NCBI GenBank assembly: GCA_964016885.1
Contig: OZ024743.1
Location: 264,678,001 to 264,742,000, forward strand
Length of the DNA stretch: 64,000 nt
Source of the DNA: Eledone cirrhosa
Taxonomy: Eukaryota
Direction: 5' to 3'
Notes under the pieces: generated by a model
The model's database searches: none
The model's input: only the letters and a program-made list of their open reading frames with translations
What the model was told of the DNA's origin: nothing
Position numbers and translations under genes: made by a program
Shown here: positions 5,235-64,000 of the stretch, piece after piece
Position numbering within the stretch: position 1 is the stretch's first letter
How the letters are laid out: every line of letters begins with the position of its first letter

Positions 5235-5505
5235 ATTAATGGCGGAAAACTGGGAGAGGGCACTTGCCCTGGTGGTCGGTGTCACTGTGGCTTTTTAATG
5301 GGCTTTCTCCACGAATATCCCTCGGAAGTCTCCCCCCTATTGGGGAATTTTTCATTGTTTTTTTTTTTGTTACTTCCTCTTTTTTTGTTTTTTACACGCA
5401 GAAATGCCCATTTGTACCGTCCTGCATTGTCCTGTACTGTCTTTAATGTCTACTTTATGTAAACCCTTGTGATTAATAAAGAAAGCATTATTATTATTAT
5501 TATAA

Positions 5506-5692
5506 GGGCGGTGAACTGGCAGTATCAGTTGAGGGTCGGACGCCTTGTTTTGCAGCATAAAGTTACGGCCCTTTACGTTCTGAGTTCAAATCCCGCCGAG
5601 GTTAACTTTGCCTTTCATCCTTACGGGGTCGATAAAATAAAGTACCAGTAATGTACTGGGTACTTACTGGCCTTCTGCCAAAAGTAGAAACA
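5506..5692 (+). mobile_element. tRNA-derived SINE, full length, inserted in the tail of Tx1 copy 1
   Basis: A-box-like tggcagtatcagtt, B-box gagttcaaatcc, body gaggttaactttgcctttcatcc...aagtaccag, tail agtagaaaca-(ATT)n. Multiple copies in the window. Confidence 0.88.
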
Positions 5693-6800
5693 ATTATTAT
5701 TATTATTATTATTATTATTATTATTATTATTATTATTATTATTATATACACACATAATCATACATATATATGTATGTGTATGAAAAACTAAATAAAAAAT
5801 ATACTAACATACATATACATATATACATATATGTATATAGAATAATCCGAATATACAAACATACAGCAACACATACCCAACGATAATACATATATATGTG
5901 TATCGTGTGTATGTATATATCGTGTGTATGTATATATATATATATATATATATATATATATATATATATATATATATATATATATATATATATATATATA
6001 TATATATATATGTGCAGTGCCTTTGCTCACTATAAAAGCTTCACGGCACAGGCATTGCTTTATATCTGGAGATCTCTCTGCACTTGTCCTCACATGGTAC
6101 CATGGGCCCAGCACTATGTGTCAATAATTGTCACAGGTGCAGTGTTTGTACCAGAGTTTTCAAGTCGCTGGCTGGATTAAAAAGTCACACTTGTTCAGCG
6201 CATCGGTAGGAGTTCTCCTACATGGATATAAAGTAGTGGCCGTACTCGAAAACGAGTTGGCAGCCACCATATATATATATATATATATATATATATATAT
6301 ATATATATACACACATACACACGATATATACATACACACGATACACACATACACATATATACATATATATAAATATACATATACATATATACGTACACGC
6401 ATACATACAAATACATAAACACCCACATATATATGAATATCTGCATAAATCAACACTCGCAAATATAAAAATATAACACGCATACCCATACATCTACACA
6501 CATACACACATACACATGCGCACACATACATACACACATACATATATATATATATATATATATATATATATATATATATATATATATATATATATATATA
6601 TATATATATATATATATATATATATATATACACATATATATATATATATACACACATATATACAATATACACATAAATATACATAAATATACACAAATAC
6701 ATATATACACACATACACATATACACACATATACAAATACAAATATACACGCATACACACGAAATACACATATACACATACCAGTATATATAATAAATAC
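5693..6800. repeat. Compound microsatellite block: (TTA)n, (TA)n, (CA/TA)n
   Basis: Directly visible pure and degenerate tracts, interrupted by non-repetitive sequence at about 6011-6270. Confidence 0.95.
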
Positions 6801-60700: not shown

Positions 60701-63653
60701 TCATAGACGAGGACCCGGCTACTGGAAGCTAAACGCGTCCTTACCAGCGCGCAGGGCCTACAGAGACTGGATTAGCGAACTAGTTAAGCGGGCGTTGACG
60801 GGGGCCATCGTCAACAACAAGTGGTGGTTTGCTCTGAAAAGAGCGATTAGAATAGAATCCATTAGGTTTAGTAAGGCTTTAGCAATAGAGAAAAATAGAG
60901 CAGAGGGAGAACTAGTTAGAAAATTAGACGAGGCGCTTTGCAAAGGCATTGCGACCGACGTGCTTGCGGCGAAATTGGCCCTTGACCAATTCTTCAATGC
61001 AAAGCACGAAGGCTGCTTTGTCAGAGCAAGGGTGCGTGCTCTCAGACACGAGGGGACGAAAGCCGTTCAATTGGCCGGAGTGGCGGAGGCGCATCGTGGC
61101 AACTAAGCCTCGATCCGGTCTTTGGTGGACCACGACGGGCGCATGCTACTCGATCCCGGGAAAATGTGTGAAGGTTTTCAGCGACACTTCGCCCAGCTTT
61201 TCGGGGGCAGCGGTGGGCCGGGTCGAGGGATGGACTTTAGTGTCTACCTCGACGGACTGCCGCGGCTCTCGGCCACTGAGGCGAAGTGTTGCGAAATGCC
61301 GTTAACAGCCGCTGAAGTAAGGGAGGCAATGACTGGCTGCACAAGGGGTAAATCGCCTGGTTTGGATGGTCTGCTCTATGAACTTTACGTACAGATGCCA
61401 GACTTGTTCGGAGGCCTCTTGGCGGACGTCTACTGCAACTGGCAACAGAACGGGAGAATTCCCAGTTCTGTGAGCCGAGGAGCGGTGGCACTGCTGAGAA
61501 AGGATCCGAACAAGAGGGATAACATAGATAATTTCCGGCCCATAACTCTGCTAAACACAGAGTTCAAGATTTTGGCCAAGGTGCTAGCAAAGAGGTTGGC
61601 GCTTGTCGTTGCTGGTCTGGTGGGAGAGGCGCAGACATGCGCCATTCCCGACAGATCCATCCACGACAACCTCCACCTCATGCGATACATCGTAGAGAGG
61701 GTGGCTAAGGAACCTGGCACGGGTGGGTCCTTGATCAATTTAGATCAGTCGAAAGCTTTCGATAGGGTCGACCATCGTTACCTAGCGGCAGTCCTGAGGG
61801 CGGCTGGCTTTGGGCCCGTCTTCAGAGGCTGGATCGCTGCCATGCACAGCGACATCTGCTCTGTGGTGAGAGTGAACGGTCACCTGTCGGAACCGTTCAA
61901 CATCATGCGCACGGTCCGCCAAGGATGTCCCCTCTCGTCCCTCTTGTACGTATTGACTCTCGACCAATTACTGCACAAACTAGAGACGTTGAGGCGCGTC
62001 CCGCGCGAACTAGGATGCGGAAGATTCGTGTCAACATATGCGGACGATGTCACCGTAGTGGTGTCGAACGCCAAACACATCGAGGCGATCGGCACTACTC
62101 TAAGAGAATACGAAGCGGTGACAGGAGCAATGATCAACCAGGAAAAGTCAGTGGGCCTGCAGCTCGGCACCCGGAGAGGCAGGTCCATGCCGTTCAATAG
62201 CGTCGTCGGGAGCTGGACGGACGGACCGGTTAAATTGCTAGGGGTCTGGTTCGGTCCGGACCTCCAGACGGACAAAAACTGGGACGAGGTGACGAGCAGG
62301 GTGGCTTCTCTCACCCAGAAATGGGCGGAGAGGAAGCTATCCCTGAAAAGTCGAGCGGAGGTGGCTAACGCGTACATAGCGTCTGTCATCTGCTTCCGCC
62401 TGACCGTCGAACCTTGTCCTAAGCCTCGCCTGACAGCGCTGGATCGTTTGCTCTTTCGCTTTTTGTGGAAGGGACGCGCTCCGATGGTCAGGCGGTCCAT
62501 CTGTTGTCAAAACCCGCTACGTGGAGGGCTGGGCATGCCGTGGCTGATGATGCGCTGGCACGCGCTCAGGCTACGACATCTCCACCTCTTCCTCGACGAT
62601 GATCAGGTGTGGTCGCCGTTTGCTAGACACGTATTTCCCCAGCTCGTTTCCTTGTCGCACCTGCAGTCCTGGGTCAAGCGAAGACCGAGAGGGAGCGCCT
62701 GGAGACAGGAATGTCTTCAGGCGCTCACAGCCCTCGACCAATCGGGCAATGTGATCGGTGGAAACCCCACCTCGGCGTTCTATAGAGGATTAGTGGAGGG
62801 GAAGAGCGACGACGTACTTGGGGAAACTCTAGGCGTCGACGAAAATCAACTAGCCGATCTCTTCGGAAGAACTTTCGGGCCAGGGCCTATGGACAACTTC
62901 CAGAAATCCCTGGCCTGGCAGTGCCACCGAGGAGCCTTGCCAGTTCGGGATAAACTCTACAGGCATGGAGGTGCCGTCAGCCGGGCATGTCCGAGATGCG
63001 CGCAGGGCGACGAAACCGTCCTGCACGCACTCGTCCAGTGTCCGAAAATTGCTGACTTGTGGGTTTATGTCGAACACCTGCTGTCGCGTGTAGGACGGAT
63101 CCGGCTATCATCTGAGTCCATTGTGAGGATTGCTCCGCCCTCCTCCTTTAGCCTGGAAGGGCAGGCAGTTTTTATCTGTCTGGTGGCCATGGCGAAAGAG
63201 ATAGTATGGTGGACACGTTTGAAAGGGCTGAAGACGAGCACTTACCTCTTCGGTGATGCTCTGATTGACATTTTCAAATTTCATTTGAAAAGGAAAATCA
63301 GAGTAGAGAGGGAAGTGCTCTCTTCCCAGCATTTTGTTGAAAGTTGGGTGAGAGAAGCAAGAATGGCCCGAGTGAATGGGCCTACTCTGAGTATATATCT
63401 GAGTATATATCTGTAAATTAAAGGTGGAAAACTGGGAGAGGGCACTTGCCTTGGTGGTCAGGGTCATAGTGGCTTTTTACTGGGCTTTCTCCACAAATGT
63501 CCCCTATTGGGGAATTTTTCATTGTTATTTTTGTTACACCCTCTGTTTTTTTGTTTTTTTACACGCAGAAATGCCCATTTGTACCGTCCTGCATTGTCCT
63601 GAACTGTCCTTAATGTCTACTTTATGTAAACCCTTGTGGTTAATAAAGAAATC
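57735..63653 (+). mobile_element. L1/Tx1-clade LINE, copy 3, apparently full length and best preserved
   Basis: ORF1 from ATG 57951 (frameshifts; knuckle region deleted near 59010). ORF2 59995-63416. (TTA)n on both sides. Confidence 0.95.
59995..63416 (+). pseudogene. Tx1 ORF2 (APE-RT-CCHC), frameshift near 60505 and stop at 61104
   Basis: SINARGL, ISETR, GDWN, LDRVF, TDHK; KSPGLDG, LDQSKAFDRVDH, VRQGCPLS, YADD; CPRC..ETVLHALVQC. Confidence 0.93.
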
Positions 63654-64000
63654 ATTATTATTATTATCATTATTATTATTATCATTATTATTATTATTAT
63701 TATTGGCGACCTACGTAGTAAATCGTATTATCGTGAGCTCCGCAAAGGTTTGTTATTTCCGTTTGTTAAAAATTGCCATTCATGGAAAATTTTTATTGTT
63801 AACCATATATAAGCACACATACATTGTTTTCCGAAAAGGACACCCAAAAAGATTGGGGCCTTGTGCCCAAAATTTAAACTTTTATTATTATCAAACATTT
63901 CTTTGAAAAAAAATGGCTAATTCACTTCTGCACCAAGCATCTGAAAGCCTTCCTCACAAATTAACACCTCACACCGACTCCACCATTGTAAATGTTACTA

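Follow-up and report, generated by a model that had tools for sequence, protein, structure and literature searches.

A SINE and Tx1-like LINEs of the octopod Eledone cirrhosa share a 3' stem-loop and an ATT insertion site: a probable stringent partnership

A 64-kb stretch of the genome of Eledone cirrhosa (64,000 nucleotides; assembly GCA_964016885.1, contig OZ024743.1, positions 264,678,001 to 264,742,000 of the forward strand), hereafter the window, contains three long copies of L1-group long interspersed nuclear elements (LINEs), at least eight pieces of a short interspersed nuclear element (SINE) and a nest of R4/Dong-like elements. The LINEs, assigned here to the Tx1 type, and the SINE have the same stem-loop at their 3' ends and the same ATT insertion site, so that the SINE likely borrows the copying enzyme of the LINEs. 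The closest named relative of the LINE protein of the window is found in Argonauta hians (67% identity). The genome measures 3.0 Gb; the sequence base of the analysis is 864 kb, made up of the window and 800 kb of other stretches picked by round coordinates, with 50 kb of the total flanking the window. LINE families were drawn from these 864 kb and from loci obtained by targeted searches, a sample that covers part of the genome. The features of the window are as follows (ORF, open reading frame; RT, reverse transcriptase; UTR, untranslated region).

1–5486 (+): Tx1-like LINE copy 1 (family A), ORFs broken; its 5' end precedes the window
5463–5473 (+): 3' hairpin of copy 1, ACC-CTTGT-GAT; the middle pair is broken here, most family A ends having GGT
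5506–5692 (+): full-length SINE, inserted into the ATT repeats that follow copy 1; the loop reads CTTCT, a variant
12429–12462 (-): 34-nt 3' fragment of family A, starting at the lower-stem base and flanked by a 10-bp duplication that starts with ATTAT; overlooked in the earlier note on this DNA
24106–24290 (+): full-length SINE; A box at 24117, B box at 24180, UCON3-type body, hairpin at 24267–24277, duplication of 16–17 bp starting with ATTAT
24870–25002 (+): SINE, 5'-truncated, 13-bp duplication
31474–31514 (-): short 3' fragment of SINE type, with hairpin
38721–38814 (+): SINE, 5'-truncated, 9-bp duplication
39757–39892 (-): SINE, 5'-truncated
39872–45334 (+): Tx1-like LINE copy 2 (family B); CCHC knuckle of ORF1 at 40697, ORF2 frameshifted, hairpin GCC-CTTGT-GGC at 45311–45321; 5' limit approximate
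45412–45595 (+): full-length SINE behind copy 2; hairpin at 45572–45582, 16-bp duplication starting with ATTAT
46257–57706 (-): nested R4/Dong-like elements, ending in (TAA)n, the opposite strand of the same repeat; 3' end unrelated
57711–57734 (+): upstream copy of the 24-bp duplication of LINE copy 3, (ATT)4 ATC (ATT)3
57735–63653 (+): full-length Tx1-like LINE copy 3 (family A); frame with RT and zf-RVT at 61107–63416, hairpin ACC-CTTGT-GGT at 63630–63640, then AATAAA and GAAATC
63654–63677 (+): downstream copy of the 24-bp duplication of LINE copy 3
63705–64000 (+): 5' end of a fourth Tx1-like copy; SINE-type hairpin GGGC-CTTGT-GCCC in its 5' UTR at 63856–63868

The three long LINE copies of the window encode an APE endonuclease, an RT and a zf-RVT domain (PF03372, PF00078 and PF13966), and the best solved relative of their ORF2 is human L1 ORF2p (E 2e-41, versus E 3e-20 for R2). 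A CCHC zinc knuckle in ORF1 is a feature of the Tx1 clade, and such a knuckle (CX2CX4HX4C) was found in families A, B and E as well as in a sister element described below. Families A, B, C and E are 71–79% identical to one another at the DNA level, F is 86–89% and G 80% identical to E, and many ORF2 frames are open over 1150–1153 aa. In quick trees, the first of which was built on 74 of 114 rows, the sampled Tx1-like families form one clade inside the L1/Tx1-like RTs. By a threshold for target preference of more than 20% of flanks, given in a section of PMC4494074, families A and C prefer ATT arrays and family E prefers (ATCT)n-type flanks. The label Tx1, which the earlier note had given to the window copies, is therefore supported by architecture and target preference, not by a tree with named elements; the tree holds no Tx1L, Kibi, Koshi or Keno, and the families are best regarded as putative members of the Tx1 clade.

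The inserted copies of these families carry no poly(A). They end in a stem closing the loop C-T-N-G-T, then AATAAA and GAAA, followed by a repeat, which is (ATT)n in families A, B and C, of (ATCT)n type in E, G and H, and AT-rich in F. Among 86 Tx1-group ends matched by pattern (ends with a damaged motif lie outside this count), 14 stem/loop combinations occur, with the stems AACC/GGTT, AGCC/GGCC, GGCC/GGCY and TGCC/GGCA and the loops CTTGT, CTAGT, CTGGT and, once, TCTGT. Family E (L276–L283 and L290) is young (about 98.5% identity), has an open ORF2 of 1153 aa and inserts into (ATCT)n while keeping the hairpin, a switch of target with an unchanged RNA motif.

The SINE is about 185 nt long, has A and B boxes and ends in GGC-CTTGT-GCC, 7 nt and GAAACA. 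It was matched 109 times in the 864 kb, with a 3' end in 76 cases, and extrapolation gives about 4 x 10^5 copies. Its boxes, its 109 copies and its duplications agree with the features tested for tRNA-derived SINEs (SINE2); no particular tRNA was recognized in its head by ARAGORN or, at E 10, by Rfam. Its body resembles six UCON3 rows in part of the supplement of PMC7245038 over about 50 nt, a match made by eye rather than by scored alignment. A Meta domain behind the head was rejected, as this region is unlike the BivaMeta-SINE1 and BivaMD-SINE1 rows and its body words are absent from the portion of the PMC4824008 supplement that was searched. In a longer SINE subfamily the 7-nt spacer is variable and the stem, the loop and the subsequent AAA are kept.

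All hairpins on which the proposal of a SINE-Tx1 partnership had been based in the earlier note lie where they had been placed (ACC-CTTGT-GGT at 63630–63640, GCC-CTTGT-GGC at 45311–45321 and GGC-CTTGT-GCC at 24267–24277), and so does the single mismatch reported for copy 1 (ACC-CTTGT-GAT, 5463–5473). Further GGC-CTTGT-GCC hairpins of the SINE are found in the window at 24979, 38791, 45572, 39770 (-) and 31487 (-). The lower stem that had been described as common to both elements does form in the copy at 24267, but it is not conserved in the SINE, where the outer position is A in 60 of 73 copies, and it is doubtful because the 7-nt spacer needed for pairing varies freely in the longer subfamily. 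Between the upper stem and the junction lie 13 nt in families A, B, E and G, as in the SINE, and 14 nt in C and F.

A strict descriptor (three Watson-Crick pairs, CTNGT, 7–9 nt and GAAA) gave 76 matches in the 864 kb: 51 with GGC, 7 with ACC and 7 with GCC stems, one SINE variant, 8 within a Dong ORF and 2 unassigned. As 65 of these 76 matches carry SINE or Tx1 stems and the reversed sequence gave none, the motif is not a product of chance. The Dong matches were rejected as a 3' end, all 8 being copies of one site within the ORF. A survey of RTs in the genome sample yielded Tx1-like, Dong, RTE-like and CR1-like groups, names that are presumed from RT motifs, together with four RT groups lacking a usable 3' end. 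One natural 3' end per LINE family was compared with the last 30 nt of the SINE by 3'-anchored alignment. The main SINE tail aligned with all eight Tx1 ends (p 0.001–0.037); against four RTE ends, two Dong ends, CR1-c9 and CR1-c13 with its repeat, p was 0.19–0.95, and against bare CR1-c13 it was 0.031. None of the sampled clades fits the SINE tail better than the Tx1 group does.

The compensatory change around one loop that had been noticed in three window stems holds in a wider alignment. Of 16 natural ends, 9 have C-G and 7 have G-C as the middle pair, and none has it unpaired; 89% of the cells are paired, a value reached in 0 of 500 shuffles, while slid controls gave 20–56%. Restricted to the 12 LINE ends, 85% are paired, with 2 of 500 shuffles as high. 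A covariance model trained on 30 SINE tails, out of 49 distinct ones, yielded 17 matches in 96 kb, namely 4 SINE ends, 9 of 14 Tx1-group 3' ends, two hairpins in Tx1 5' UTRs and two unrelated sequences; none of the 9 CR1 and Dong ends was matched, in a set that contained no RTE end. The converse model, built from the 12 LINE ends, recovered all LINE ends and led to the 34-nt fragment at 12429–12462.

The two kinds of element also have the same insertion signature, a feature of stringent pairs: both show duplications and a 3' flank that begins with ATTAT (63 of 72 cases for the SINE, 22 of 25 for family A and 13 of 15 for family B). Duplications were found at 46 of 76 SINE ends; their median length is 15 bp and nearly all start with ATTAT. 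Informative duplications were counted at 21 of the 76 ends, compared with 0–4 in ten shuffled pairings. A duplication test keyed on 13-mers is blind to duplications within pure repeats and is therefore uninformative for Tx1, RTE and Dong. For Tx1, 17 of the 20 long A/C copies have an ATT run immediately before their 5' end, the remaining three giving no clear answer, and unique duplications flank LINE copy 3 (24 bp, bearing a diagnostic ATC), the 34-nt fragment (10 bp) and the copy at L052 (15 bp), the last two lying at short ATT sites. Since the SINE duplications start with ATTAT, the ATT behind the SINE is largely target: the (ATT)n that had been described as a tail does follow the ends, but it is mostly insertion site and not only tail. 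Tx1, SINE and Dong elements occupy the same ATT/TAA runs, Dong in reverse, and many Tx1 ends adjoin a reversed Dong end.

A search of genome contigs with an ORF2 relative also brought up a sister Tx1-group element (L346–L393), an animal-type retrotransposon whose tandem arrays make up most of a record filed as a bacterial metagenome-assembled genome; the record is probably host DNA. With 41% ORF2 identity to A and E and a CCHC knuckle in ORF1, this element was placed in a sister clade with an SH-aLRT support of 100 in a quick tree. The motif AAGGC-CTNGT-GCCTW, followed by a second hairpin and AATAAA, is present in 56 of 56 ends (28 distinct, from one assembly), the loop being CTCGT in 14 of the distinct ends, CTTGT in 13 and CTAGT in one; GGC-CTNGT-GCC occurs in 4 of 5000 shuffles of this UTR. 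The stem GGC/GCC is the SINE's own upper stem, and its presence in the sister element indicates that the middle pair swaps between C-G and G-C inside the LINE lineage. Further upstream, two of three long SINE tails align with the sister element (p 0.007, 0.023 and 0.30). Among distant L1/Tx1-like loci from metagenomes, the hairpin was found in 2 of 41 complete 3' regions, with 1.66 expected; as this is the chance level, the motif is restricted to this Tx1 lineage. The model matches among these distant loci are not 3' ends where checked. L1-like RTs, with 27–28% identity, are also encoded by three viral contigs of 186–211 kb (L394–L396).

Taken together, the SINE and the Tx1-like LINEs probably form a stringent partnership in which the LINE ORF2p would recognize the hairpin. 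The proposal that a Tx1/L1-clade enzyme mobilizes the SINE is thus supported by the lack of a better tail match in any other sampled LINE clade, by the covariation, by the exact upper stem of the SINE in the sister element and by the ATTAT target with its duplications; its second half, the reading of the hairpin by ORF2p, is a prediction. The many open ORF2 frames and, in the longer SINE subfamily, the persistence of stem, loop and AAA beside a variable spacer speak for the partnership as well. The process could be viewed as follows. RNA polymerase III (Pol III), directed by the A and B boxes, would transcribe the SINE. The RNA would then be bound by ORF2p at the stem of 3–4 bp and the C-U-N-G-U loop, with shape read in the stem and sequence in the loop as shown for zebrafish L2 in part of PMC4176376. 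At ATT repeats the APE endonuclease would introduce a bottom-strand nick, reverse transcription would begin just behind GAAA(N)C, and a second-strand cut about 15 bp away would produce the duplication. The likeliest donors would be the ATT-targeting families A, B and C, as families E to H insert into different repeats. An older Tx1-group 3' end, whose GGC/GCC stem persists in the sister element, is the probable ancestor of the SINE tail. A broader view is favoured only slightly over its negation: that a whole Tx1 lineage of animals, with members only 41% identical in ORF2, recognizes its template not by poly(A) but by a conserved hairpin with a C-U-N-G-U loop, and that its first parasite by tail sharing is a major SINE of octopods, which has kept the ancestral GGC/GCC stem; the two would form a stringent SINE-LINE pair of the L1 group in animals.

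Several observations weigh against this partnership. The shared stretch is only about 25 nt long and had been noticed before the tests were run. As few as one or two evolutionary events may underlie the swap of the middle pair, and relatedness is not taken into account by the pair-shuffle control. Taken individually, the matches of the SINE model to LINE ends are insignificant (E 0.46–8.7). The LINE-only model missed all 7 SINE tails of the window and detected none in another 100 kb; used blind, it found neither SINE nor sister tails. With one model positive and the other negative, the likeness is real in aggregate and too short for blind detection. In 20 SINE copies, the predicted probability of the hairpin is 0.996 in 30 nt, a median of 0.49 in 60 nt and 0.06 at full length, and folding energies are no better than those of shuffles in 7 of 7 stretches (z -0.4 to -1.8). 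No LINE with the exact stem of the SINE was found in this genome, all 13 pattern matches being SINE-like, and none of the 7 matches to the sister-type pattern is a LINE end (best protein match 45%). As to the target, the ATT runs around SINEs are short (median 2 units) and those of Tx1 A/B copies long (5–6), and only 7 of 19 truncated A/B entries have a duplication. Copy divergence is similar in the SINE and family A, a point in favour, but copy age fails to separate Tx1 from RTE.

Other engines were considered. One is the ATT-tailed CR1-c9, or another CR1/L2 element of the kind that SINEs of molluscs usually depend on, the likeness to Tx1 being then a coincidence or a relic. CR1-c9 ends are followed by ATTAT in 24 of 24 cases, a first look gave at least 2325 candidates, and bivalve SINEs use CR1, CR1-Zenon, L2 and Nimb (PMC11481361, in part). 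However, the CR1-c9 tail does not align with that of the SINE (p 0.20–0.43), no duplication was seen at 20 junctions (some perhaps misplaced), a second test gave 0 of 21 versus 16 of 82 for the SINE, and in a third ATT lay on both sides in 1 of 28. CR1-c13 does share a GGCC..GCCA word with the SINE (anchored p 0.003–0.065), and the long SINE tail gave p 0.003 with it and p 0.154 with family H; this partial match and the ATTAT behind CR1-c9 ends weigh against the Tx1 pairing, but CR1-c13 has its own tail repeat of 10–11 nt and lies in (AT)n on both sides, and the SINE covariance model matched none of 4 CR1 ends. Mobilization by CR1 or L2 is accordingly quite improbable. A very young CR1 family (L296–L320; 150 of 150 scored matches identical over 183 aa) inserts in (AT)n and ends in its own repeat of 10–11 nt. 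Even slightly less credence is given to a partner among the RTE or R4/Dong elements, or among LINEs that are extinct or lie outside the sample. In favour of these, RTE and Dong elements are numerous and similar in age, Dong has the same repeat as its target, LINE sampling is partial, and the Ceph-SINEs of cephalopods contain RTE parts (PMC5786205, in part); yet the SINE tail does not align with any of the four RTE or two Dong ends (p 0.13–0.95), and RTE ends are followed by GAT repeats and Dong ends by AAT on their own strand, a polarity opposite to the ATTAT of the SINE.

A different objection leaves the enzyme in place and questions the hairpin: a Tx1-group ORF2p could mobilize the SINE by way of a short duplex between the RNA end and the nicked ATT target, or by relaxed recognition, the hairpin being inherited with another job such as 3' processing beside AATAAA. 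In the LINEs it immediately precedes AATAAA, in the full-length SINE RNA it is seldom the predicted fold, and the same hairpin is present in one 5' UTR of family A. However, the SINE has lost AATAAA and still retains stem, loop and spacing, inserted copies lack poly(A) and, even where families differ in target, stop at a constant distance behind the stem, and in one case, that of 34 nt, the insertion begins at the base of the stem. This possibility is unlikely, although it is the least unlikely of the three. The reading preferred here thus remains a stringent SINE-Tx1 partnership with recognition of the hairpin by ORF2p.

The 5' regions and two chimeras deserve separate mention. A SINE-type hairpin (stem GGGC, loop CTTGT or CTTGA) lies about 40 nt before ORF1 in one type of family A 5' UTR, followed by an ATT-like stretch (window 63856–63868; L295, L419–L430 and L436). 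It was read in 12 of 13 family A starts, is absent from the other type of A start and was not seen in families E and F or in the sister element; either capture of a SINE end or an additional binding site might account for it. At least two unrelated 5' UTRs are joined to similar ORF2s in family A (window 57735 and 63705; L419–L438), and family C has two more, which suggests repeated replacement of the 5' end. At L118 (7700–7900, -), a SINE body is fused to an internally deleted 3' end of Tx1 C type, and at L005 the 3' part of a CR1-c9 is fused to a family A 3' end. Both are possible template switches of the kind able to give a SINE a Tx1 tail. Elsewhere in the window, Penelope-like pieces with GIY-YIG matches lie at 12491–14679, 20052–21138 and 32143–33873 (-), and inverted repeats at 28575–30721 and 19888–22287.

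No account of this SINE-Tx1 pairing was found in the literature searched, a search outside which lie the Repbase, Dfam and SINEBase entries and the supplements of octopus repeat papers. A partnership by tail sharing of this kind was thus not found described for the Tx1 group in animals, although precedents are known for a common target (SINEU) and for a hairpin (maize). Mobilization of SINEU by the crocodilian Tx1-Mar was deduced from a common target preference and overlapping age (PMC4494074, in part), and as here, a SINE was assigned to a Tx1-clade engine. According to the same portion of that paper, SINEU elements have U1/U2 heads and poly(A), and the 3' end of SINEU-1 is matched by no LINE, whereas the present SINE has Pol III boxes, no poly(A) and a structured 3' motif in common with its putative partner. 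Kibi and Koshi are also of Tx1 type and insert into short tandem repeats; the elements studied here target (ATT)n, (ATCT)n and AT-rich repeats, and the part of PMC4494074 concerned with Kibi and Koshi mentions neither a SINE partner nor a 3' hairpin.

The closest likeness in the tail is to ZmSINE2/3 and LINE1-1_ZM of maize and sorghum and to SINEX-3_CR and L1-1_CR of Chlamydomonas, pairs of a tRNA-SINE and an L1-clade LINE whose 3' hairpin has a conserved loop, a variable stem and compensatory changes and was interpreted as stringent (PMC3472496 and PMC3747384, both in part). According to the same sections, these plant and algal pairs differ in sharing about 50–80 nt, in having a UCU loop, in not being Tx1 and in not targeting microsatellites; the excerpt of PMC3747384 counts three L1-tailed SINEs among 58 pairs, none of them animal. 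The fixed loop and changing stem observed here also match the pattern of UnaL2/UnaSINE of eel and ZfL2 of zebrafish, whose small 3' stem-loop is read by the endonuclease-RT linker of ORF2p, generally in the stem and specifically in the loop (PMC4176376, in part). Those elements belong to the L2 clade and were studied by experiment, whereas the case made here for the L1/Tx1 group is indirect; the "TX1" that appears in that part of PMC4176376 is the name of a mutant protein, not the element. As for the SINE body, UCON3-domain SINEs are described from chordates, nematodes, cnidarians and xenacoelomorphs with tails of RTE, CR1 or unassigned origin (PMC7245038, in part), in contrast to the Tx1-type tail found here; the word "octopus" is absent from the supplements that were searched.

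In sections of PMC7245038 and PMC3472496, the reading of RNA structure by L1-group enzymes of animals other than mammals is assumed, and the listed tail-sharing L1 pairs are from plants and algae. The present pair provides an animal test case of 25 nt in which compensatory variants occur naturally and one loop position is free, which opens the question of structure reading to direct test. A likely engine is also proposed for a SINE of about 4 x 10^5 copies, in a lineage in which SINEs are a main repeat class (PMC13282606 and PMC8967140, both in part), and a shared target would explain why SINE, Tx1 and Dong elements pile up in ATT/TAA runs.

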